DNA from: Eledone cirrhosa
Lineage: Eukaryota
Assembly: GCA_964016885.1 (NCBI GenBank)
Contig: OZ024745.1
Location: forward strand, 116,622,001 to 116,686,000
DNA length: 64,000 bases
Direction: 5' to 3'
The position numbers and the translations under genes are program-made. Below, piece by piece: positions 5,495 to 60,094 of this stretch (its first letter is position 1; every line of letters begins with the position of its first letter). The notes beneath the pieces are model-generated. The model did no database searches and was not told the origin of the DNA. It saw nothing but the letters and a program-made list of their open reading frames with translations.

Positions 5495-5904
5495 ATACCT
5501 TTCTGTCAGATGATTGAACGTTTGAAAGTATATACTTTCCTTATGCATATTAACGGGTGAGCAGTCTAATTTGCATATCGAGTGAGTTAGTCAGCCGATC
5601 GCACCGAAAACGATAAATGGAAAAGAATGAAACGAAATTTCATTTTTCACTCTTAGTATGGCTGATACCTAAATATAAATACGGCGTAATTCGGGCTGTT
5701 TGTTTACAAACAAACCGAACGTTATAATAAATGTTCGGTAAACCCATACGTACATATATATATTTGTGCATGTATGTATATATATACATACTACTGTACG
5801 TCTGTACACATATATGTATGTACGTATAAATACTTATATTTAGGTATCAGCCGTACTAAGTGTGAGAAATGAAATTCCGTTTCATTCTTTTCAAAGTTCT
5901 TTGA

Positions 5905-6171
5905 TAAACTATATATATGTGTTTGAGTCTATATTGTATCTGTATTATTTTTTACCGTTGGTCAGTCAATGGCAACATTGAGGACCGAATTAATTAGATT
6001 ACCAATATAAAAGACACAGAAGCGAAAAGCGAAAACCAACCAAACAGTGAGTGTGTTCTGTTATTAATTCTGGCAATATTACACAAATATGACCCTCCCC
6101 AAGTATAACAATATTTGTTTCGACACACGATTTCATAACGATTTCGACACACGATTTCATCAAAAACCTCA

Positions 6172-6523: not shown

Positions 6524-6577
<54 letters not shown>

Positions 6578-6764
6578 AAAGAATAGAAGTGTAACACACG
6601 GACGCTCTATCTCAAAATTATTTTTGAAAAGCATTAGAAATACGCAACCGGTAAAACTTGAAACCAAAACTGAATACCAACCAATACAATTACTAATTCT
6701 CACTTATTCCTAATGAAACTATTTTTCACTGTGAACAATTTGTCAGCATTTTCTATTCCGTTTA

Positions 6765-6849
<85 letters not shown>

Positions 6850-12295: not shown

Positions 12296-12612
12296 TTCGT
12301 TTTTTTTTGCAAGATTTCTTGTCTGAAAACGTGTGTTGAAACGGATATTATTATAATTTGGGAGGGTCAGGCTACTAATAAAAACACACGCACCTTTGTT
12401 TTAAATTCAATTTATTACAAAAGCAGGAGGGTGTAGACCAGAACAAAGGAGAAACACAAAATATGAAATCAGTCACTGAACAGATCACAGAATGTATGGA
12501 GAAAGAGCTTTGACAATGAATAAACAACTATCTGGGAATTTGTAATACATTGAAGGAAAAAGCAACAGGTGCATGTGTTTTATTGGCAGCATGACCCTCC
12601 CAAAGTATAACC
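12296..12612. mobile_element. Family E-related termini in inverted orientation within (TA)n
   Basis: 12351-12394 is an imperfect reverse complement of 12567-12610 (GGGAGGGTCA / TGACCCTCCC motif shared with 6090, 22092, 41660). Confidence 0.7.
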
Positions 12613-12666
12613 ATATATATATATATATATATATATAAAGAATTTTCGCTCTACATGGCTGAATAC

Positions 12667-12965: not shown

Positions 12966-13016
<51 letters not shown>

Positions 13017-13020
<4 letters not shown>

Positions 13021-13104
13021 GAAAATCCGAAGGCAAGGTAAAATTCCAATCATTTAACCACGACACATGTTTCAATAAGAGATAGATCGATTGTCAAGCC
13101 ATGG
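13017..13104 (-). mobile_element. Family F terminal fragment carrying the GAAA half of an HHR
   Basis: Near-identical to 51317-51404; stops in the stem II loop; abuts (TA)n. Confidence 0.8.
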
Positions 13105-20745: not shown

Positions 20746-21837
20746 TCATGTTAAACATTGGGTGTTGAGTTCTAATCTATTATTGATTGGTGGTTGCTTT
20801 TTGTCTATAATTAATGCTTCTTTAATTCTAAGATTGCCGAAGTTTCTTTCCTTAGCTTCTATCCTAACTATTATGTTTTTCTCCAGATGTTTCTTAAATG
20901 AGGAAGCATTAGTGTTGAGGTGTTCTTTTATTTTAACGTGATGTTGTCTGCTGGTTCTACCCATGTAGAAACTGCTACATTTGTCGCACTCTAATCTGTA
21001 GACGACGTATGCCTGGTGGCAGAGGTCTGTGTCGTCGATGGGGTAGTTGGCCAGCGTGCAGCGCCTGTCTTGTCTGGTGGAGTGTCTCTTAGCTATCTGT
21101 CCGCGCAGAGAAGGTCCTGAGTGGGATAGCTGGATATCTAGTCCCTCTCGTCTGATAGCCCAGCGGATGGCTGTTGTAGTTTCGTCACTGAAGCGTGGGA
21201 GCTTCAGGAAGCAGGTGTTAGTGCTTCGGCTGTGGTGTCCTCTGTTGTTTCTGGCACGGTTCGTGGTGGACGTCGGGTATCCGTTCAGTGTAAGTACTCC
21301 CAGGAAGTGTGTGGTGTGTGTGTCTCGGTCTCTTGCATCGGTGCATTTGTTCCGTATACGTGTCAGTTCGTTCCTTATGTATCCGAACTGGGAGGGCTGA
21401 CCTAAAATGGACGAACAGGGCCCTGCTGGCAGCTTCTTTATAGAAGCAGGTGTGGATGTCGCCTTCCTCTGGAAGTCTAATAGGGATAGGGATCCACGGT
21501 CATCGGGGTGTTCCATGCTCAACTTTATATTGGGGTCCATACTGGAGAATGTCATGTATATTTGATTCGGTTCTTCACGAGATGATGTAAGGATGAGTAT
21601 GTCATCTACATATCGAGTGAAGAAGGTATAGGAATGGCAGGTGTTGAGGGCTCGGCATTCCAGCTGGTTCATATAAGTGATGGCCAGCAGGCCCGATAGG
21701 CTGGATCCCATGGGTAATCCTGTTTTCTGTCTGTATGTGTTGTGGTGGAAGGTGAAGTATGTGTTGTCCACCGTAAAGGACAAAAGCTGGTGTATGTCCG
21801 TCGGATGGAGGCCGTAGCTGTGGTCCAGCTCAGTCAA
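20746..21837 (-). pseudogene. Penelope-like element RT plus GIY-YIG endonuclease, 5'-truncated
   Basis: YRQKTGLPMGSSLS, RYVDDIL, LSLLD RT motifs; VVYRLECDKC..FYMGRTSR..KIKEH and EAL.I..KQP.IN endonuclease motifs; thumb region looks deleted or frameshifted. Confidence 0.9.
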
Positions 21838-22036
21838 AATCTTTCCCTGAGTTCAGTCTATTTCGTTGCTATGGCAAGGCGGCTGGACTGCCGGTCGCTA
21901 TATTGGATTTTCAAAGCTGTCTAAAGGTATTGTTATAACTCTGGGGTATTATTCTCCATCGAATGCTAAATCTACATTCCGAATCTGCATTTGTTAGCTT
22001 AGCCGCAGCCTAAAGCTTCATTAATGCTGTACTAAA

Positions 22037-22084
<48 letters not shown>

Positions 22085-22086
<2 letters not shown>

Positions 22087-23133
22087 ATACTTGGGGAGGG
22101 TCATATTTGTGTAATAATATTGCCAGAATTAATAACAGAACACACTCACTGTTTGGTTGGTTTTCGCTTCTGTGTCTTTTATATCGGTTAATTAAATTTA
22201 TTCGGTCCTCAATGTTGTCATTGACTGGCCAACGGTCAAAAATACAGATACAATATAGACACAAACACATATATATAGTCCATCAGAGTTCTTTCGTTGC
22301 ACATCTACAACCTCGTCAGTGGTGCTATTATGTTTCCTCCCGTTCCGTTCCATTGTATGCTTACGCCATCTTTATTTAGTGTTTATTTATTTATTCATTT
22401 GTTTATTTTTTGTCTTCTCTGCGCATGCGTTTGCGTGTGTGTATAGTGTTTTGTTTGATGTGTGTTCTTGTTTGGGTGACTGTGTATTGGTTAATGTATT
22501 CTATCTTAGTTTACTAGTGTGTATTTATATGTGTTTGTTGTTATTGTGCTTGTGTATGTATTTATTTATTTATTTATTTATTTATTTATACTTCTCTTAG
22601 GTCAGTGTTGTTTGTTTGGGTGTTTTTGTTATTTCATCATTTTTTCTGTTTAGCCTTGGCCTTCTAAGTTTTATTTCGCTGGCCTCTCTGATTTGCCTAT
22701 CTGCTGGGTCATTTCTATGTTTAGATATTATTCTAACTTCTATGTTGTCTATGTTACCGTTGTGTTGTTGTCTGGCATGTTCGTATAGTACTGAACCGTT
22801 TTTTCGTCCTTTTAGTTCCCCCCAGTGTTGGTCTATCCTTTCAACTATGCTACGAGCTGTCTCGCCTATGTATGTTGTTGTCATATTTCTGCAAGTACCC
22901 TTTGTACATCTTATGCTATAGACTACGTTTCTAGTTTTACAGTTTATCCGGGGGTTTACTCTACATATGATACATTTCCTATTAGTACAGTGGGTTTTCT
23001 TAAAAGGGTAGGTTTTGCTGATCAGGGATTTTATGGTGGTTCCTAGCTTTTCTACCACCTTAATCTTTAAGTGGGTCTTTCTCAGGGCCTTTCTACACTG
23101 GTTAGCTAATTTCCCTCCGGAGGTAGCATCCAT
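22085..23133 (-). mobile_element. PLE family E 3' part: GIY-YIG ORF (22597..23133), 3' UTR and terminus at (TA)n
   Basis: CTNRKCIIC linker, NVVYSIRC, YIGETARS..RIDQH, RQIREA..LNRK; UTR shared with 59430-59815. Confidence 0.9.
22281..22324 (-). ncRNA. Minimal type I HHR, family E
   Basis: Minus strand: cacca-CTGACGA-g gttgta gatg tgcaac-GAAA-g aa c-TC-tgatg. Confidence 0.75.
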
Positions 23134-23147
23134 TCACACCAACACAT

Positions 23148-23219
23148 GATGTGTTGGTGTAAATGGTAGCACAGTGGTCCGGATAACCAAAGATGGAGGT
23201 TCGACTCCCATGTACGTCA
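23148..23219 (+). pseudogene. tRNA-like sequence (pseudo-tRNA or SINE head)
   Basis: GATGTGT/GTACGTC acceptor with wobbles, D arm GTGT-AAATGGTA-GCAC, TGGT/ACCA anticodon arm, GGTTCGACTCC; lacks U33 and has an imperfect T stem. Confidence 0.55.
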
Positions 23220-28620: not shown

Positions 28621-30544
28621 GGCGCGTTGTATTTTTAAGAGCAATGTCAGTTTAGAAATGCTGCAACTTATTCTAAGGTGTGTTTTCTGTTGTTGATATC
28701 TTTGTTGCCCCAAGATTGCATTGACCAACTTGTCATGTTTCATATAAATAATCAATTGAAAGTGTATCATGATTGGATCTACTATCTCAAAACTTAGGAT
28801 ATATTGTATGGGGTGTAGTGTGATAGTCAAAGTATGTTCGATTTCTGGTAGGTGCTAATCGGTTCTTATAGGTTATGATGATAGTTACAGTAGAGAACTG
28901 TGATATTATTGAGAATTCACTTGCCGTGCAATATTGAAATCATTGTAAGTACTCGGTGTTTGTTCCACATGTCCAGGTTTAATTTCATATTATTTCATAT
29001 TATGTAAACACCGTTAATTAAAATAGTACATAAATTTAGATTAAACGCTAATTAGAAACAGCTATTTATCTTAATATCTGTAATATTGTAACTATAATTA
29101 TATATAATTGGCTTGCCAATGTTGTAATAGATCTAATTAAATACAACCATATTAGACATTATCATTTGTAAAATACCGAGAACATTATACAAGCTATAAA
29201 AACATAGACATTGACGTTTAACAGTAAATGCTGCTAACATGCTTCCAATTAATTATTTTGGTCAAAATAAATGCTTTATAATATGCAAAACTGTAATTAA
29301 TACTTAACACCCGACTTGATTCAGCACAATATCACTTTATATAGACAATTAGCCCGGCGTTGTTCTTTATAATTTTCTAAATAAACTCATTATTCATAAA
29401 ATCTATTATAACTGAAATTTAATTTTACTAATGCTTTATTTGTTTATGAAAATATGATATATCCTATTAAAGTATATACTCAATATAAATATTAAATTAT
29501 TTGATTAAAACTTTGTAACTTTAATACGTCTATATTTTATCAGTACATTATTTTTCCTTAGTAGAATCAATCCAAAACATACACACAATTGTTTACAAAA
29601 TATTTTTTATATCAATTCCATTTTCTATTCAAGTTAAAATTAACCTGATGCGGGATATAATTAGTATTTGTTTTCTGAAATTACTTTAATCCCATTTGTC
29701 ACTTATGTTAGATACTAAGTTAAATAATCGAGTAAACAATTCAAGACTGTTATTATCTTTATGCAGAGGAAAACAGAAAACAATTAAAATTATTTTCATT
29801 TTTTGTCCATTAAGCACCTTCGTTTAATAAATGAAAATAAGAGAGCTAGTAAAAGTGAAATTGAAATTGATCATTCAACTGCTAAAGATATACATCACAA
29901 AATTGAACTAGAGACTTTGTGGTATGGTAGGCTATTAATGACAAATATATTCACTATTCAGAGACTGAATGCTGGTGAGTTTTCCTATTGCCATCTATGT
30001 CCACATATATGATCTTGAAGGCTTCTCTTTTAAATAATGAAGCACTCGTCCATTAAGGATTAACACTTCTTATGATAGTATGTTGTGCTACTTTATGGAT
30101 TCAATTTCTAAACCTTTCACGTCACTGAGACAGCGAGAAGTCTCATTGGTGTTTTGCAAACCACGTGCTTCTCCTGTTAGTCTCTGTTCTGTATATCATG
30201 CGTGTAAGTTCAGATAGGTCGATTTCCTTCATTAACGATCCTGATCGATCATGATAGATAATTGGTGAAATGTATTCATAGCTATAGAGGGATACGTGCA
30301 AAAGAATATAAATATCTTTTGCCAGGTATCTCTATTTGAAATTTCTTTGTTAAATATTAATATGTTACCTTACCAAACTATGTGTTCTTACTTCTATACA
30401 GATTATTTTCTGTTATGGTCTGATAGGTTATTTTATGTATGTATGTTATTCAATATATGTGTACATATATATTGTATATATATATGTATATATATATGTA
30501 TATATATATATGTCAATCAATGCTCGGATTTATTCCTCAGAATC

Positions 30545-31218
30545 TCTCTTCGAGCTTCTTCTCAAACATGGCATATATATTTATACACACATACATACAT
30601 ATACCTTGAAATGGGATATACTTTCCAGCGCTAGTGCATATCGGAGTGGATTGAATACTGTAGGTTATGTAACCTTGAACTCTTTTACATCTTAAAATCC
30701 AAAAAGAAATTCTAAATGATAGAATCGAACGATCATTATACTGCAACCACAAATTGAAGACTAAATTACCTCACTATAAAATAACTTAACATTCGAACCC
30801 GTAACTATAACATTGCTTTCTAGCTAACCACTTTCTCTTCCCCCACACTACAAGACAATACCCTGCTTATCACTATAAATGGAAACTTAGTGCAATTTGT
30901 AGACTACTACTATGAACTCAGTGTAGACCCATCCTATAGCTTTCGTCTGTCCCCTCTCTATCTCTCCCTCTCTATCCATTCCTCTCTCTCTCTCTCTCTC
31001 TCTCACTCTCTCTCTCTCTCTCTCTCTCTCACCCTAGGTCCACCTCCCTCCTTCTCCACATCTATGAACCTGCCCTCTGGGGCAATAAATAATTCCAACC
31101 TTGACTATCAACGCATCGCTTACGGTGGTCGCTTTAAGAGTAACCAGTATAATATAACCCCTACCACAACATGTTGATTAAGATATCTACAAACTACTCT
31201 CTCCCATTTCTCCAACCC

Positions 31219-38842: not shown

Positions 38843-39328
38843 ATATTACACAAATGTTTTCGATAACTCACAGTCCTGCAACAGTCCTCTTAAATTCCAC
38901 ATATCTTACCATACAAGTATTTACAGTGGAGGGTAAGGAGCGGTGTTAGGGTAAAATCATTATTTACGAACGTGATATGGTTAAACTGTTGATATTAGTA
39001 TCACCTCTAATATTACACAAATGTTTTCGATAACTCACAGTCCTGCAACAGTCCTCTTAAATTCCACATATCTTACCATACAGTGGAGGGTAAGGAGCGG
39101 TGTTAGGGTAAAATCATTATTTACGAACGTGATATGGTTAAACTGTTGATATTAGTATCACCTCTAATATTACACAAATGTTTTCGATAACTCACAGTCC
39201 TGCAACAGTCCTCTTAAATTCCACATATCTTACCATACAGTGGAGGGTAAGGAGCGGTGTTAGGGTAAAATCATTATTTACGAACGTGATATGGTTAAAC
39301 TGTTGATATTAGTATCACCTCTAATATT
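38843..39328. repeat. 157-bp tandem repeat, three copies
   Basis: Units start at 38843 (167 bp, 10-bp insertion), 39010 and 39167; otherwise identical by eye. Confidence 0.95.
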
Positions 39329-39355: not shown

Positions 39356-39530
39356 GGTGGTGGTGTTACGGGCAGAAGGTTTTACAGCATTCGTTTCGAC
39401 TCATGCAGACCTGTGTTCAAATTCCACCGAGGTCAATTTTGTCTTTCATCCTTTTGTGTTCGATAAAATAAAGTAGCAGTCAAATACTGGGTCGATGTAA
39501 TCGACTGTTACCACGACATTGTGTTTAAAT
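39356..39530 (+). mobile_element. Degenerate S1-type SINE
   Basis: GTTCAAATTCCACCGAGGTCAATTTTGTCTTTCATCC core. Confidence 0.7.
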
Positions 39531-40029: not shown

Positions 40030-40205
40030 GATATATATATATATATGGATAGATAGATAGATGCGAGATAAACCACAAACCCTCCATCTCAATTCTACTT
40101 TTGAAAAGCATAAGAACTGTGAAACCGGTAAAGTCAATAAATAAATATTCTTAAAAAGACTATTTGCATTTTCGATTTATTTTCCTTATGTATATATATG
40201 TATAT

Positions 40206-40240
<35 letters not shown>

Positions 40241-40242
<2 letters not shown>

Positions 40243-40972
40243 CAATAAAGGGAGAAGAATACAGATACATACACATCTGTATTCAGATTATAAGGGACCA
40301 AAATTTGTTATGTTGAACAGTATACTAACTATAAACAAAACGGTCTGCCAGACTCAATTAAAAGAAAACAATGGTGACAACTATTGATAACATCCAGACA
40401 GTCTTTGGTAAATTGTTTCACATTAATTGAAGGGTATTACCAATTCTTCTGCTCGTCAGTGGATGTAAGGAATTAGTAAACTCCTTAATTCTAGGTATCT
40501 TACAAGACTAAATGAAATGTGCATTTAGAGTGACGCACATGGCATTCAGAACCCAGCGTGATTCGCAAAAAACCTGTACTGCTAAAAATAGCAGCCTGGT
40601 TTACGGGACGATTATTTAGCTCTACAAAATTAAATTTAAGGAGCCGTACATCAAAGTATATATTGAGTTAGAAACTCATTAAGGTCCATTAAAACTAAAA
40701 TTAGCTCATGGAAAAAAAATTAATTTCCTGACCGTTCAATAAAGAGAGCATGCAGATATGTACTATGTACACATCTGTATTCAGATTATAAGCGACCAAA
40801 ATTTGTTAGTATGAACAGTATACTAACTATAAACAAAGCGGTCAGACAGACTCAATTAAAAGAAAACGATTAAGAAAAAACAAACAGCCCGGAATTTTTT
40901 TTTTTTTTCCTTGAGCTAATTTTAATTGTAATGGACCTTAATGAGTTTCTAACTCGATATATACTTTGATAT
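40241..40972 (-). mobile_element. ORF-less HHR element, family D: about 495-nt unit plus partial tandem and inverted tail
   Basis: 40241-40368 repeated at 40735-40867; 40649-40718 inverted at 40901-40972; starts at (TA)n. Confidence 0.75.
40391..40465 (-). ncRNA. Type I HHR, family D
   Basis: Minus strand: catcca-CTGACGA-gca gaag aattg...caatt aa tgt-GAAA-caattt acca aagactg-TC-tggatg; perfect 6-bp stem I, GUC site. Confidence 0.85.
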
Positions 40973-41451
40973 ATACATTTTTGGAAGCAACAGGGAGCTG
41001 TGTAATTACTTGATAAAGTGTATTTAGAAATAAAAGGAAAGCACAAGCTTTTAACTCTTTCCCTTTCTTTCTCTCCCTCCCCCCCTCTCTCTTTGATATA
41101 TCTATGCTTTGCTTTGTCTTACATTTTTGGGGGTTTCCGGGATTTTTGTTCCTTTATTGTTTTGTATTTTTATATTTATCTCTTTTCTTATCCCTGTATT
41201 TTTGTACTTTTTTATTATTTTTTTATTATTTTCTTATTGTTTCTGATCATGCTGAGTAATACCCTCACTCATCCCTTGCTACCCTCCCCCAACCTGTGTT
41301 TATTTTTATTTTTAAGACATTTTATGACATTATATGCATCATGTATTCTGTCTTCTTCCATATAGCGCTGGCATCGGGACCCCCTGCTGGTCCTTTAACC
41401 TTGTTCTGGTGACGCAGCTCGATGGAGCATGCAACTATTGATATACTCTTG

Positions 41452-41510
41452 TTTATAGGCTCTGATGATTCTTGCCATGGTGTATGGATGAAACACTGTT
41501 AGCTAATAAA
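41452..41510 (+). ncRNA. Type I HHR before (TA)n
   Basis: tttataggct-CTGATGA-ttcttgc catggt gtatggat-GAAA-ca c tg-TT-agctaataaa; terminal 41517-41540 is inverted at 41567-41590. Confidence 0.7.
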
Positions 41511-41535
41511 ACAATGTATTTGGTTATTCCTATAG

Positions 41536-41574
<39 letters not shown>

Positions 41575-41647
41575 TAGGAATAACCAAATATATATATATA
41601 TATTTATATATATATATATATATAGATATATATATATATATATACAT

Positions 41648-42210
41648 ATTGTTATACTTTGGGAGGGTCATTTTGCCAATAAGAAACACAGGCACCAGTT
41701 GCTTTCACTCCAATGTATTATAAATTAAATCATAAATTTAAAAATTTATAAATTTCCGGTTAGTTGGTTGGTTCCACAACTGCACGGTTGTTCATATATT
41801 GTCAAACTGCTTTCGTCACGCATTCTGTGACCTCTTCAGTGACTGGGGATTATTTTCTTTATTTTGTGACTCTCCTTTGTTCTGTCCATCTTGTTTTTGT
41901 GTGTGTTGTCTGCTTAGTTTGCGCATGTGTTTCATCCGGGTGTCTGTGTGTGTTTTTATTTGTTTATTTATTTGTTTATTTACATGTTACTAGTGGTTTT
42001 TTGTTCTATGTGTGTGTATTTTCATTTTTTCCTTAATTGTAAGTTGTGATGTTGCTATTCGATTCATGTTTTCTATTTAATTTTGATTGGAGTTCATTTA
42101 TGTTTATTGCCTCTGTGATTTGTCTCAACATTGCATCTTTTCTGTGTGTAGATTTTATTTTTATTTAGATGTTCTCTAATTTGCCCTTATGTTCTAATTT
42201 AGCATGTTGA
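41648..42210 (-). mobile_element. PLE 3' fragment related to family E
   Basis: Minus strand QHAKLEHKGKLENI*IKI..HRKDAMLRQITEAINI..LNRKHE; GGGAGGGTCA terminus at (TA)n. Confidence 0.75.
41801..41843 (-). ncRNA. Minimal type I HHR
   Basis: Minus strand: gtca-CTGAAGA-g gtcac agaatgc gtgac-GAAA-gcag-TT-tgac; stem III poorly paired. Confidence 0.65.
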
Positions 42211-47108: not shown

Positions 47109-47286
47109 TCAGAGCACCAATTCTAATTTTCAATTTTTGCTGGACCGGCAATCGCTCCCTATAATCAATTTCTGATAATTACTGGAATTCTATAAGAATC
47201 CAACATCTATAATTTTCAACAGGCATCAGCGAGTGCTAAGCTCTGATGATTACCCACAGTATGAAACAGATCTGTCAGAGCACCAA

Positions 47287-47293
<7 letters not shown>
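47109..47293 (+). mobile_element. 166-nt retrozyme-like unit with terminal redundancy
   Basis: TCAGAGCACCAATTCTAAT at 47109 and 47275 (166 nt apart); second copy spans the HHR cleavage site and runs into (TA)n. Confidence 0.75.
47234..47282 (+). ncRNA. Intact type I HHR
   Basis: tgct aag ct-CTGATGA-t tac ccaca gta t-GAAA-cag at ctg-TC-ag agca; GUC site after 47276; bulged stem I. Confidence 0.85.
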
Positions 47294-50578: not shown

Positions 50579-51358
50579 TTTAGTCGTATTATAAAATTTA
50601 TTTAAATATACATCACCTGTCTACTTAATATACAATGCAAATATTTGTCTAATAAGGTAAAATGCGAGGAGTAGAAATGAAACATAAAATTTGATTTATA
50701 TGACAGATTTTATTAAGCACCATCAGAAATATTATTACGGTTAGTATTACTTCAAATGTTAATACTGAGAATATTTGAATGTTAATCATGATGGAAGTTT
50801 TAGAGAAATTCACGACGAGACTATCAATAATGGATGATGAAGTGATAGTACAAAAAACAATACTGAAATGATTTGAAGTAGAAATATCAGATGTACAAAA
50901 TGTAATCAGAAAATGAAAACGGTAGATTTTACTTTGGAAACAAACAAAAAAATGCTACATTTTTTCTGTGTATATATGTAGATATATACATATATATATA
51001 CACACACACACACACCTATATATATATATAGAGAGAGAGAGAGTGAGAGAGAAAGAAGGAGAGAGTAATAGGGAGTGAGAGAGAGGGTGATAAATGGATG
51101 GCATTGGTAGGTAGCTAAAGACAGAGTGAGATAAATATGTGTATGATATATATATATATATGTATATATATAATTGTTATATAGTACGGTGCATTATTGG
51201 TTGTGTAAAATGGTCCAATAACTTTATGTTAGCAATATTAAGTTTTCCACGCTTTTGTATATCTCCAATTCCATTCAAGGGAACAGCTAGATGATGTAAA
51301 ACGGAGTATAAGTATCAAAATGAAAATCCGAAGGCAAGGTAAAATTCCAATCATTTAA

Positions 51359-51432
51359 TCACTACACATGTTTCAATAAGAGATAGATCGATTATGAAGC
51401 CATGATCGATTATCACTGATCTCATCAGATGA
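51359..51432 (-). ncRNA. Type I HHR, family F (left arm)
   Basis: Minus strand: tcat-CTGATGA-long stem II-GAAA-ca tg tg-TA-gtga. Confidence 0.75.
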
Positions 51433-51945
51433 AAATGAATTGTCTTCAAATTCTTGATATGAGGGAGTAAAATAACGATGTTCTCTCACAGAATTCATTC
51501 CCTCATATGAAGACACACCAGTCAGTCAGAGACACGGCGACTGCTATTAAGTTCAGTTGAGGTCATACAAGTTTTCAGATTTCTATCGCTGCAAAAGACG
51601 CTGGACATCAATCAAATCTGTAGGGATACAGTCAGTCACAGTTAATGTGAGTGGATACACACACATTCCACACCCACATACACCGGCTCGAGGTCAAAGA
51701 AAAATATATACATATATATACACACATCAACACAGTATTAAACCTGTAGAGTTAGTGTGGGTGGGTACACGCACACTATCACATACACCAAAGCGATGTC
51801 CGAGAAAAAACGAATATAAGAAAACAAATATAAGAATGTACCAACACAGCACTCACCGAAAGTTAGTTCACAAAACAACAGAAGCTATATTGGTCAAATC
51901 TCAATTTGACGATGTAAATTGGAAATATTGGGTTAACCAACACCC

Positions 51946-52002
<57 letters not shown>

Positions 52003-52719
52003 GCAAGTAAGTTCAGTTCAGTGTTCTGCTATACGTGTATAGATTGAATTGTAACATCCATATCTTCAAGTGTATGTTATGGTATATATACACATCCGAA
52101 TCGTCCAAAAAAGGAGGTATGTCCGGGTATATACACATCATTGTGAAGAGCAAGCAATCAGCTCATATGGAACTCAGTATGTACCGCTGTCCCATTGAGA
52201 ATCCGAGTCACCAAATCCGTGCGTGCAATATTTCCAATTTACATCGTCAAATTGAGATTTGACCAATATAGCTTCTGTTGTTTTGTGAACTAACTTTCGG
52301 TGAGTGCTGTGTTGGTACATTCTTATATTTGTTTTCTTATATTCGTTTTTTCTCGGACATCGCTTCGGTGTGTGTGAGAGTGTGTGTGTACCCACTCACA
52401 CTAACTCTACAGGTTTAATACTGTGTTGATGTGTGTATATATATGTATATATTTTTCTTTGACCTCGAGCCGGTGTATGTGGGTGTGGAATGTGTGTGTA
52501 TCCACTCACATTAACTGTGACTGACTGTATCCCTACAGATTTGATTGATGTCCAGCGTCTTTTGCAGCGATAGAAATCTGAAAACTTGTATGACCTCAAC
52601 TGAACTTAATAGCAGTCGCCGTGTCTATGACTGGTGTGTCTTCATATGAGGGAATGAATTCTGTGAGAGAACATCGTTATTTTACTCCCTCATATCAAGA
52701 ATTTGAAGACAATTCATTT

Positions 52720-52793
52720 TCACCTGATGAGATCAGTGATAATCGATCATGGGTTCACAATCGATCTATCTCTTATTGAAACATGTGTAGTGA
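52720..52793 (+). ncRNA. Type I HHR, family F (right arm)
   Basis: tcac-CTGATGA-gatcagtgataatcgat...atcgatctatctcttatt-GAAA-ca tg tg-TA-gtga. Confidence 0.8.
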
Positions 52794-52854
52794 TTAAATG
52801 ATTGGACTTTTACCTTGCCTTCGGATTTTCATTTTTATATATATATATTTTTTT

Positions 52855-53022: not shown

Positions 53023-53067
<45 letters not shown>

Positions 53068-53068
<1 letters not shown>

Positions 53069-53424
53069 GAGGATCGGAATTAAGAGTATTCCGCAGTTCA
53101 CAGTAATAATAATAATATTAGCTCAAAGAAGAATAGAGAATTTTCTTCTGAGCTTAAATACAGATATATTACCCAACGAGAAGTGTGTTACACAGTGAGA
53201 TGTGTGTAAAGAATTATTACAAGTGAGTTTTACCATTACTATTCTCTATACAGTAACAGTAAAACTCACTTGTAATAATTCTTTACACACATCTCACTGT
53301 GTAACACACTTCTCGTTGTGTAATATATCTGTATTTGAGCTCAGAAGAAAATTCTCTATTCTTCTTTGAGCTAATATTATTATTATTACTGTGAACTGCG
53401 GAATACTCTTAATTCCGATCCTCG
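53068..53424. repeat. Inverted repeat, 166-bp arms, in (TA)n
   Basis: 53068-53233 vs 53259-53424, two mismatches seen. Confidence 0.95.
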
Positions 53425-53440
53425 TATATATATATATATA

Positions 53441-53901
53441 TACAATATTAAATAAATGGAAAACTATATTTATAAAATCATATCTATTTCATCATATATA
53501 TTTCGGGGATATCATATTAACAATATGCTATGCCTTCATCAGACAAAATACAATATAAACAGTTTTATAGATAAATATATTCGACATACCGTAATAGACA
53601 TCAACTTCATTTGAAGAGGTTTACTCTAGCAGAGTAAACCTCTTCAAATGAAGTTGATGTCTATTACGGTATGTCGAATATATTTATCTATAAAACTGTT
53701 TATATTGTATTTTGTCTGATGAAGGCATAGCATATTGTTAATATGATATCCCCGAAATATATATGATGAAATAGATATGGTTTTATAAATATAGTTTTCC
53801 ATTTATTTAATATTGTAAATATACTCCAAATATTTGTCGAGTGCTTTTATATCAGTTATAAATATTTACTAGTTGTAACCCAACAATTTTAAATATAACT
53901 T

Positions 53902-55900: not shown

Positions 55901-57174
55901 GTCGCCCAGTACCACTCGCTGCTGTTTTTTGCACTGGTGTTGGCTCGGTTGTTCACCCGTTCCTTTATATTTTCTTTACTGTTTTAAACAAGGATTTGTT
56001 CGTTTGTTTGTTTTTTAGTACTGTTTCCACACAGTTTTTTAAACTCTCCACTTTTATTTAAACATTGCCTTTCTCCTTTCCCTTCCCCTAAACCTTTTCT
56101 TTACTTTCGTTATTTAATTATTTTTCCATCTTTCTTTTTCTTTTTGTTATTGCAAACATTATATAACCGAATTGAAATTTGTCGAATAAATAAAACTCGA
56201 GAAATGTATATATATATATATATATATGATGTATAGTGGTAAAAAAAAACGGGAGGTTATATCCGTAGTAGGTAGAGAATTCAGTCCAGAAGACGAGTTT
56301 GGTATAGATTTACTTACATAACAAATTCGCAAACCATACTCGAGGACGCGCGTTTCTCCCAACAGATTCTCAACTCGAGTGAGATTGAGCTGAAAACGGA
56401 AGTGTATATCATCTGACTGGTTTCTCTTTGCATGGCCGCTATTGCCCCGTCCGGCATGGTCAGGTTTGCCCAGGACTTCTACCGTTTAATTAGCCTCCAC
56501 GCCTGGGCCAACTGTTCGGCTTTATCGCTAATATCAATATTCAATAAGCGCTTTGTTTTGCTGCTGCTGCAGCAAATGTGGTGTCTTTGTTGCTCTTGTT
56601 GTTGGTGTTGTTGTTGTTTTGTTTGCTGTTGCTGTTGCCAACGCCATCCGTGTTTACATTGAAGCTGTCGGTGTTATTGTCGTTGTTGTTCTGAGTTGTT
56701 GTTGTGGTGGTGGTGGTGGCGGTGGTGGTGGCGGTGGTGGTGGTGGCGGTGATGTCGTTTTCAGATGAAACACAGAAGAGAGCGGTTGTGATGGTAGCTT
56801 TTGTGTTTTGCCTTCATATTCAGTGGAATGGTCGACACACATGTCTGTAGTAGTCGTAGTTGTGGTGAGATCTACAGTGGCTGCTTTTGAACTTTCGACC
56901 TGAACTTTGTTTACCGTTTCAAGGTCAAAAATTTCCATTTTTTTTTGGTGCGGAAGCGATTTTTTTTCGAAGTTTTTAAAAATAAATCTGAATATTCGGG
57001 CTTAAAGCCCGAATATTGAGAGGTCTCCCTGCCTTGAAATCAAGGTGGGTACCTTATGTTTCGTTAACGACAAGAAAATACAAAAAAAATGATACTTTAA
57101 AACAGCTTAAAGTTACGAACCTTTTCCCCCGCAGACTTTTACGTCTTCATACATGTGCGTCCAATGTAAATAAT

Positions 57175-57615
57175 GAGAAATAGTAATAATAATAATGGTA
57201 ATAATATTAACGATAGGCAGAACAACAACAACAACCACGATAATAATAATAGAAACATTAACGACAGACACAACAACAACAAACACAGTAGTAATAATGG
57301 AACTAATACGAGTAACAACAACAACAACCACAGTAGTAATAATGGAAATAATACGTGTAGGAACATTAATGATAAACACAGCAACAACAACAACAACAAT
57401 AAACATAATAATAAAAGTAGCAACCACAATGGTAGAAATAACAGTAACAATAACAATAACAATAGAGAAAGCAACAGCAATACATCTAACAATCATAACA
57501 ACAATACATCTAGCAATCATAACAATAATAATAATGTTAATGATAGGAACAACAACAACCACCATAATAACAATAATAGCAACACACACAACTATGACGA
57601 TAGACATAACGACAA
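57175..57615. repeat. (AAC/AAT)n-rich low-complexity tract
   Basis: Visible directly; in frame with the downstream PLE ORF as poly-Asn. Confidence 0.9.
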
Positions 57616-59815
57616 CCCCTTAGAGAAACTATTCTTCAATCCAGCTGACAAAACATATCAGATGGGTAATATTTATCCTACGAGGTTACCCTTTAATAAA
57701 AGGGTTTGTATATCACAACAAGTAGATGACGAGACAGAGGCACAGTTCACCATAGCTAGAAATAAGATTAGACAAATAGTAGACCGATATACTAAGAGAC
57801 AGAGCAGACCAGAGGTCCAACAACTTGGGGGGAAACCTGTAGAAGGCTTGGTTAGCATCAAGCAGTGCACAAGGGATGGTGAGGTAGTGTGTCTACCCAC
57901 GGATAAGTCTGGTAGGATGTCAATAGACAGCATGCCGAACTACATCAAGGCTATGCAACCCCACATTACCAACACGAGCGAAATTACACAGCAAATAAAT
58001 GAGGGGAGAGAGAAGATGCTCAACGCTCACATGATGATGTGAACCCACATCCTAAAGCCAAGCAGACGTACTGCCAACAACTTCCAGGCGTCTAACAATG
58101 ACATACCACACTTGTATGGGCTCCGCAAAGACCATAAGACAGTCGACGACCCGACAACAGGACCACCGACAAGACCTGTATGCGGAGCCAATATCGCTAG
58201 CAACTACAGGATCTCCTACTTCCTCCCAATGGTTATATGCCCCATAATCAAGATGTCCCCGTAATCAAGATGACAGTACAGAGGACCTCCTCAGCAGAAT
58301 CAGTGAGTGCAACAAAAACAAAAACCTATCCAACTGCATAATTGGCAGTGTGGACGTGGTATCACTATATCCATCCATTAACATTTATTTTGCTGTGGGA
58401 AAATGTGTGGAGATGATCAGTGAAAGTGAGGTGGAGTTCTCCGACTTCGACACAGACGAAATGGGCCTCCTACTTAGACTTAACCTATGACACCGAGTAC
58501 CTAGACAGCCATGACCTTAGCCGTTTCTGCCCCAGTAGACCCATAAGAAGTAGATCCCCTTCACCATAACCTTAATGGCAAAAAAGACTCCCATGAGAAG
58601 GTGAATTGGGTGGACCAAAGCCATACGGACCCCCAAAACAATGATCAGGTAAGAAAAATGATCGCACACATGCAATAGGGGCTAGTATTAAAACTACCCT
58701 AAAGAGCCACATATTCAAATTCAACGAGAAGAGGTACACCCAAAATGAGGGAGCAGCCATTGGCGTCAGCATAGCTGGTGACGTTGCCAACCTTTTTATG
58801 GTATGTTGGGAAAAGTGACTCAAAGATCTACTTGATGAGAGTGAGAGCTCCATAGACCTCGTCATGTACTCTCGTTACGTAGACGACATTAATATAGTAG
58901 TAAGGACACCCCCACAAGAGAGTACTAACAAGTATGATTTAGAATGTAGCACAATGAAAAGCATCCAGCAGATAGCTAATTCCATACACCAGAGTATAAC
59001 TGTAACTATCGACTACCTTTCCAAACAAACTAACAATAGACTACCTGTATTAGACACGGAACTCTGGATTAACACTATAGACGAGAGAGCCCAAATTCTC
59101 CACTCACACTACGCTAAATCCATGGCCTCCAAATACCTGATACTCAAAAACTCAGCAATGTCCAGTAGTGCTAAGTTTAATATTCTGATCGCAGACTTGG
59201 TACGAGTGATGAAGAATGTGTCCCGCATGTGCAACCCAACAGAAATGGAAAGACACATCCAACACTTCATCAACCGCATGCAGTTCTCTGGCTACAACAA
59301 AAGAGACAGAATCAGAGTATACGAAGGAGCCACGGAGGAGTATAAGACCCTCATAGAACTGGACATGAAAGGAATTTGCCAATTATACAGGAGCAAATCA
59401 TGGAATATAGCTTAGATAGGACTAAACATAAGATAGGGAAATATAAATAAATAAATAAATATATACAGAAGCACAATAACAACAAACACATATAAACACA
59501 CACTAGTAAACTAAGATAGAATACAATAACCAAAACACAGTCACCCAAACGCGAACACACATCAAACAATATACAGACACGCAAACGCATGCGCAGAGAA
59601 GAAGACAAAAATAAATAAATAAACAGATTGAATAAAATGGCGTAGACATACAATACAACAGGAGTAAACATAATAGTACCACTGACGATGTTGCAGATGT
59701 GCAACGAAAGAACTTTGTTAGACTATATATATGTGTTTGTGTCTATATTATATCTGTATTTTTGACCGTTGGTCAGTCAATGGTAAACACGGAGGACCGA
59801 ATAAATTAACTGATA
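57616..59815 (+). mobile_element. PLE family E: degenerate RT, endonuclease deleted, 3' UTR with HHR
   Basis: PTDKSG, LYGLRKDHK, TRPVCGA, GSVDVVSLYPSI, YTQNEGAAIG..AGDVANLFM, RYVDDIN, RLPVLD; jumps from the thumb region to the UTR shared with 22200-22596. Confidence 0.9.
59677..59720 (+). ncRNA. Minimal type I HHR, family E
   Basis: tacca-CTGACGA-t gttgca gatg tgcaac-GAAA-g aa c-TT-tgtta; homologue of 22281-22324. Confidence 0.7.
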
Positions 59816-60094
59816 TAAATGAATTTGTCAGAAATATAAAACATGTCTCGGATTTTTACTGTACTATGTTTATAGTAATAGCGTCTAGAATTTACAATGA
59901 TCACAGTGGAATATGGAAGAAATAAAACTAAAATATCTATCAGTGGCACTTAAAATGACTTTTACGTCTAGAAATATTTTACGTTCCTTATTGTTTTGTT
60001 AACTACATTTTCCAATAGAATTGAAATAGAAATAGAAGCCATCTTGTTCCGTTCAGCGTCCCCATTATTAGACTATATTATTTAATCATTGTTA

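Follow-up and report, generated by a model that had tools for sequence, protein, structure and literature searches.

A hammerhead-bearing, ORF-less element with a partial tandem repeat and an inverted arm, most likely a decayed non-autonomous PLE-type insertion

Our analysis of a 64-kb stretch of animal-type DNA (the window; all coordinates refer to it) showed that positions 40241-40973 hold an ORF-less element with a single hammerhead motif, a partial tandem repeat and an inverted arm, which is most likely a decayed non-autonomous PLE-type insertion. Read on the minus strand, i.e., in ribozyme sense, it consists of an inverted segment A', a 14-nt junction, R2, A, U', the hammerhead, a short link, R1 and a (TA)n run. 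That it was integrated in the manner of a PLE is highly probable. On balance we favour the view that an ORF-less unit, mobilised by a PLE and working like a non-LTR retrozyme, was inserted here long ago.

The 3′ end of the element abuts the (TA)n run at 40209-40240 (called as a tandem array at 40187-40239), which is the likely target site. R1 (40241-40372, minus strand) forms the 3′-terminal 132 nt of the unit, ends 156 nt past the hammerhead cut and contains an 11-bp subterminal hairpin. The hammerhead itself, a type I motif at 40390-40466 (minus strand), has a GUC site with the cut between 40397 and 40396. Beyond it lie U' (40467-40646, minus strand), a single-copy non-coding segment with local hairpins (z −3.8), and the 89-nt segment A (40647-40735, minus strand), which comes next after R in tandem order and may represent a long 'tail' between two reverse-transcription starts. 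R2 (40736-40870, minus strand) is a 5′-truncated second turn, or pseudo-LTR, which ends ∼24 nt before the ribozyme-cut position. The 14 nt at 40871-40884, where the main copy meets the inverted arm, are assignable to neither side. They are followed by A' (40885-40973, plus strand), an inverted copy of A whose 3′ end faces outward into a short TA-rich stretch.

An earlier note made from the sequence alone had described a ∼495-nt unit in about 1.25 tandem turns, with 40241-40368 recurring ∼495 nt further on and an inverted copy of 40649-40718, and its coordinates proved right within a few bases. The direct repeat joins 40270-40372 to 40768-40870 (92% identity over 103 nt, spacing 498). The distal parts of R, 40241-40271 (31 nt) and 40735-40769 (35 nt), align only with indels, and nhmmer unites both parts of R2 in one match (40736-40869, E 2e-21). 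The period is thus 495-498 nt, and 40241-40870 corresponds to 1.27 turns. The inverted repeat pairs 40647-40719 with 40901-40973 (93% over 73 nt), and with nhmmer the arm reaches 40885, which corresponds to the start of A. As the first bases of A are thus included, the arm sets in at the point where R1 stops; it is a copy of the 89 nt that follow the element's 3′ end in tandem order, and not of the 3′ end itself. The locus has a single hammerhead, which is not included in the duplication. Neither nhmmer nor repeat comparison revealed further copies of any segment in the 64-kb window. A start of R2 at the ribozyme cut site was unsupported, the junction aligning equally well in 1,368 of 5,000 shuffles. 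The junction region (40878-40896) also matches 5688-5705, in the interior of an inverted-repeat element at 5620-5892, at 18 of 19 nt (E 0.58), which is probably due to chance.

PLE insertions carry a signature of a partial tandem, an inverted 5′-truncated copy and a 30-40-nt tail, and (TA)n is targeted by several PLE clades (both from parts of PMC8557442 and PMC3846280). At our locus the partial tandem is present as a pseudo-LTR (R2, R1), the inverted 5′ piece as A', which comprises the extension only, and (TA)n stands at one end of the element with a short TA stretch at the other. Together with PLE remnants with hammerhead ends elsewhere in the window, these features bear out the PLE-type integration proposed in the earlier note. 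The candidate extension measures 89 nt, compared with the 30-40 nt of the PLE tail; in the Neptune-like family described below, alternative ends lie ∼97 nt apart. The (TA)n run also borders an unrelated repeat to its left (40031-40190), and this left-flank repeat recurs at 6557-6820. No target-site duplication or empty site was resolvable at the locus: in an empty-site comparison with the paralogue at 6557-6820 the right flanks differ, and 68 of 300 shuffles did as well.

The lack of a demonstrable target-site duplication or empty site would also suit an origin without any retroelement, namely a local DNA duplication and fold-back inversion beside the unstable (TA)n, around an older solo hammerhead repeat. 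Many short palindromes, and clustered differences in R1 that form perfect palindromes, as template switches would leave them, point in the same direction. However, the breakpoints occur in the order that a PLE insertion predicts, with R1 ending at the (TA)n and the arm starting at the end of R. Moreover, the strict hammerhead core pattern occurs eight times in the window, compared with 0.61 expected (none of 100 shuffles reached eight), and many of these cores sit in similar structures. We therefore regard local rearrangement as very improbable.

The favoured PLE-type insertion might have proceeded as follows. A PLE RT-endonuclease would have acted in trans, once and long ago, on an ORF-less RNA of ∼495 nt, its endonuclease nicking both strands of a TA-rich site. 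On one of the 3′ ends synthesis would have started at an internal site, 156 nt beyond the ribozyme cut, and run for 630 nt along a template of more than unit length, either a tandem transcript or a circle, giving the product R1-hammerhead-U'-A-R2. The opposite 3′ end would have primed 89 nt further downstream and copied segment A alone, halting where the first arm began, and the two cDNAs would have been joined head to head at 40871-40884. Two-start priming would thus make the inverted arm an extension instead of a 3′ end. There are precedents for several of these steps: purified Poseidon protein cleaves AT-rich DNA on both strands and extends them, and it initiates internally at two sites bounding the tail, with ribozyme cleavage not required (PMC11167929, in part), while cDNA of more than unit length from circles has already been proposed in a review (PMC7761336, in part).

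According to a curation guide, the full-length copy is the one that has a truncated tandem copy after it (PMC8969392, in part), and by this rule the unit comprises 495-498 nt. We lean towards accepting such a 495-nt unit as native. Were it native, a circular template would be somewhat less than an even prospect. The most specific version, in which the locus is the fossil of two-ended PLE priming, with starts separated by 89 nt, on a retrozyme RNA circle of 495 nt, is unlikely.

The description of the element as ORF-less held up. Inside 40241-40973 the longest stop-free run is 55 aa, a length reached by 746 of 1,000 shuffles, and none of seven candidates was a homologue of this frame, which is weak evidence. 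A reading of U' as the end of an ORF was dropped, as it had no homologue and the frame length was at chance level. Within both the R1/R2 and the A/A' pair, stops are common to the two copies in all three sense frames, indicating that the template itself was non-coding there; the non-coding RNA template of the earlier note can thus be upheld for R and A. Searches with tblastn of 59 of 59 PLE-type proteins, the set retrieved with the Penelope-type ORF and hence one without Neptune-clade proteins, gave nothing better than E 4 against the element, and no similarity to PLE proteins was found in U'. A query with the Neptune-like endonuclease for longer relatives found none among 215 candidates. The element thus lacks the ORF with RT and GIY-YIG endonuclease that distinguishes an autonomous EN+ PLE. 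It is non-coding with a GC content of the unit of 0.337, below the 50% that delimits non-LTR retrozymes.

Coding PLEs are well represented in the window. A Penelope-type ORF with RT and GIY-YIG region lies at 20749-21852 (minus strand; 368 aa stop-free; Pfam RVT_1 E 3e-10; tblastn E 9e-119), with a best database match of 55% identity; the best named relative of a window RT is an Octopus bimaculoides protein (51% identity). A Neptune-like family is found at 57170-59820 (plus), 22081-23133 (minus) and 5893-6114 (plus). Its member at 57170-59412 (plus strand) is a long, interrupted ORF whose N-terminus is rich in asparagine, and 22600-23133 (minus strand) holds an endonuclease fragment with a CX4CxxC linker, as given for Neptune (PMC8557442, in part). 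The 515-nt non-coding end of this family (22083-22597) contains a bulged hammerhead core. Two copies terminate at the long 3′ end (22081 and about 6111) and one at the short (59819), ∼97 nt apart. At 23148-23219 (plus strand), a tRNA-like Rfam match of 29.7 bits, just over the threshold and doubtful, overlaps the palindrome where the Neptune-like fragment breaks off on its 5′ side.

These coding elements offer an alternative origin for the locus. It could be debris of a coding PLE, in which two 5′-truncated pseudo-LTR copies (R2 plus A, then U' plus hammerhead plus R1) came to lie in tandem, accompanied by an inverted truncated copy; or a full element could have been deprived of its ORF when an internal stretch was deleted here. 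The 495-nt period would then be an accident of a single junction, and internally deleted copies are on record (PMC3846280, in part). Neptune-like remnants in the window have non-coding ends of 515 nt and ∼408 nt with hammerhead cores, and the spacing is close: 278 nt from stop to core and 236 nt from core to end in the 22083-22597 family, 276 and 218 nt in the unit. Since the non-coding ends of coding PLEs in the window match the unit in size and are similar in ribozyme position, the absence of an ORF says little. The two 3′ ends ∼97 nt apart in the Neptune-like family are comparable to the 89 nt of A, and A and A' terminate at one point, as two copies sharing a terminus would. ORF-less inverted hammerhead repeats are also known from 51307-51930/52226-52845, 53435-53823 and 12345-12636. 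Against debris, this origin requires an extra junction, which would lie wholly within non-coding sequence, no trace of an ORF was found on either side of it, and the type of ribozyme and the degree of folding are unlike those of the coding families in the window. Furthermore, comparison with 14 other window regions revealed no significant similarity, except for a marginal 42-column match to two Neptune-like ends (scores of 34 against null maxima of 30 and 33). Taken together, the two forms of debris are the main alternative, a possible though somewhat unlikely account.

Several other structures in the window combine hammerheads with (TA)n or inverted repeats. Only 700 nt from the element, 41649-42160 (minus strand) ends in a hammerhead-core 3′ end at (TA)n; its endonuclease-like tail is weak (E 0.08), and over the final 30 nt it is similar to the Neptune-like family. 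A relative lies at 12439-12614, accompanied at 12345-12421 by a short inverted piece of its own 3′ end. The 624-nt inverted arms at 51307-51930 and 52226-52845 are 97% identical. Each bears a hammerhead that faces outward and has a long stem II and a palindromic loop III; a 3′ fragment is also present at 13003-13103. Adjacent long palindromes at 53435-53823 and 53033-53457 have (TA)n at their bounds, the former being 98-99% perfect with hammerhead cores in both arms. At 41462-41593 (plus strand), a small hammerhead core with minimal helix III precedes an inverted repeat centred on (TA)n. An ORF-less hammerhead unit of 166 nt at 47109-47293 (plus strand) shows a 19-nt exact direct repeat and a palindromic loop III; it extends from the cut-site position to 17 nt beyond the next cut, ends at (TA)n, and is a cleaner retrozyme-like monomer than 40241-40973. 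The window is also rich in microsatellites and dispersed repeats. Among them are a SINE-like repeat of ∼190 nt (811-1006 and about 12 other places, 72-96% identical, with a partial copy at 39411-39506) and a 157-nt tandem array at 38843-39328 with 2.6 identical copies plus a 73-nt piece, in which scans detected no canonical hammerhead and folding gave no signal (z +0.65).

The hammerhead claimed in the earlier note was recovered on the minus strand with its GUC site, but stem I comprises 7 bp where 6 had been given. Both core boxes are intact. Stem II consists of 3 bp closed by G-U in place of G-C, an internal loop and a further 6 bp, and helix III of 3 bp, a mismatch and 3 bp, and is non-palindromic. 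Apart from the G-U closing stem II, the motif is a type I hammerhead of canonical build. When the 733-nt element was dinucleotide-shuffled 20,000 times, a stem I of at least 6 bp together with a stem II of at least 3 bp never arose; at a looser cut-off (at least 5 and at least 1 bp), 13 of 20,000 passed. The motif lacks an unpaired base between core and stem II, as is present in minimal PLE ribozymes (PMC4209133, in part), and unlike the cores at 22319, 59682 and 41839 it is not bulged. Canonical type I motifs have been tied to retrozyme repeats and minimal ones to PLEs (PMC7229834, in part).

The present copy appears decayed, with ∼7-8% divergence between the repeats and a stem II that now closes with G-U, and is probably inactive. 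In structure prediction the constrained active fold reaches −6.8 kcal/mol, compared with −14.4 kcal/mol for the rod, i.e., 7.6 kcal/mol above the predicted minimum, so that the predicted share of active fold is ∼1e-6 (tertiary contacts left out); a competing 7-bp helix pairs 40443-40437 with 40411-40405. The G-U at the base of stem II could reflect CpG decay of the usual G-C. No loop 1-loop 2 contacts were identified, and no Rfam hammerhead model matched here at the gathering score or at E≤10. Two 10-11-nt ribozyme motifs were absent from the portion of the PMC8557442 supplement that was available, which is weak evidence. Two further ideas were dropped. One saw a selected anti-ribozyme feature in the pairing of the core with R1 through two 8-bp helices (p about 0.9), but 691 of 1,000 shuffles paired equally well; the other placed a 52-nt intron of Penelope style at 40503-40452, across part of the ribozyme, a pattern present in 262 of 3,000 shuffles.

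As the ribozyme lies outside the duplicated part, it could also be cargo: R, with A, would then be the sole PLE cis-element, and U' and the ribozyme an unrelated RNA captured between pseudo-LTRs and moved in trans. Non-coding sequences between solo pseudo-LTRs, with two direct repeats and one inverted, have been described in Adineta (PMC3846280, in part). However, with its core 218 nt from the terminus the ribozyme falls inside the 189-236 nt seen in the coding families of the window, and thus looks native to the terminus. Such a capture is highly unlikely.

The earlier note had proposed to fold the monomer as a circle. With either of the two possible unit stretches closed into a circle, folding beat all 60 shuffles (z −4.3 and −3.9) and paired 58-64% of bases, but the signal is mostly made up of local hairpins and the opposite (plus) strand folds as well (z −4.1); a Neptune-like 3′ end gave +0.3. 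In linear folding the unit scored z −3.5; three Neptune-like 3′ ends scored +0.9, −1.3 and +0.7, and a Penelope-type 3′ end −2.4. Four of 63 background tiles, which covered the window to ∼61.9 kb with microsatellites and large arrays left out, had a lower z than the unit in the linear test. Minus-strand folding of tiles 496-990 and 30196-30690 (z −5.9 and −4.3) was stronger than that of the unit. A and U' share no helix with p>0.5, and a native A-U' junction is therefore without support from the fold. These predictions suggest an RNA structured beyond what is usual for a pseudo-LTR in this window, and folding does not establish the circle form.

The two R cores have diverged at 8 of 101 sites (six of them transversions, clustered), the A cores at 5 of 73. 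A divergence of ∼7-8% between repeats agrees with the view of the earlier note that the insertion is not recent. Its other suggestion, two separate events, is less favoured than one old event, because both pairs are about equally diverged. R1 and R2 each retain an 11-bp subterminal hairpin, but with different sequences, the distal hairpin having been remodelled; this difference may stem from a template-switch mutation in DNA or from variation between template units. The clustered changes between R1 and R2, together with the remodelled hairpin, exceed what one pass round a single circle would leave at insertion.

Compared with animal non-LTR retrozymes, the element is likewise non-coding, with a GC content of 0.34, a canonical-like type I hammerhead, a more-than-unit arrangement and, by prediction, possibly a self-paired circle, and PLEs are present in the same genome. 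In contrast, its unit exceeds the 150-450-bp repeats quoted in PMC7229834, and it has a PLE-style inverted piece. A preprint (10.64898/2026.07.22.740005, in part) gives retrozyme consensus lengths of 51-972 bp and reports that solo monomers exist, derives retrozymes from PLE pseudo-LTRs by homology, and states that an active retrozyme requires two consecutive ribozyme-bearing units. With 1.27 turns and one ribozyme, our locus differs in this respect: release of a monomer from it would be impossible, and we therefore class it as retrozyme-monomer-like, not as an active retrozyme. The 'retrozyme family' of the earlier note is accordingly not borne out, as there is one locus with one hammerhead, and the ORF-less length of 495 nt matches that of non-coding 3′ ends of coding PLEs here.

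EN+ PLEs of the (TA)n-targeting clades Neptune and Hydra, as portrayed in parts of PMC8557442, PMC3846280 and PMC4209133, share with the locus the partial-tandem pseudo-LTR, the inverted 5′ piece, the 3′ end at (TA)n and a sense hammerhead 150-250 nt before the end. The locus differs from them in having no RT-EN ORF, no minimal bulged ribozyme and no junction palindrome, and its inverted piece does not copy the main 3′ end but comprises the downstream extension alone, with 89 nt where a tail of 30-40 nt is usual. Non-autonomous Chlamys elements such as MRC1 offer another parallel, being PLE derivatives with pseudo-LTRs and head-to-tail insertions. Unlike our element, they are algal, most Chlamys lack canonical hammerheads, and their partner was identified by 3′ similarity, which yielded none for our locus within the window (Chlamys data from part of PMC8557442).

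In Octopus vulgaris, 31 recently active PLE families have been counted (PMC13282606, in part); the word 'ribozyme' is absent from the available part of that paper, and the present family may already be catalogued in its curated octopus repeat library (Zenodo). Our search of the open-licence full-text literature found no paper on cephalopod retrozymes.

Published work already includes non-autonomous PLE derivatives of this size; the two-start geometry is a new detail, modest and testable. If the locus is a truncated coding PLE, it is a matter of routine repeat annotation. The mobility of animal retrozymes by PLEs has so far been inferred from common ribozymes, co-occurrence and pseudo-LTR homology (PMC7229834 and 10.64898/2026.07.22.740005, both in part). 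PLE-type insertion scars on an ORF-less unit would be a more direct line of evidence, and further copies would map the starts of reverse transcription. Should two-ended priming on a circle be true, a cephalopod family would provide direct genomic proof that PLEs integrate retrozyme circles, with both start sites mapped on a non-coding RNA.
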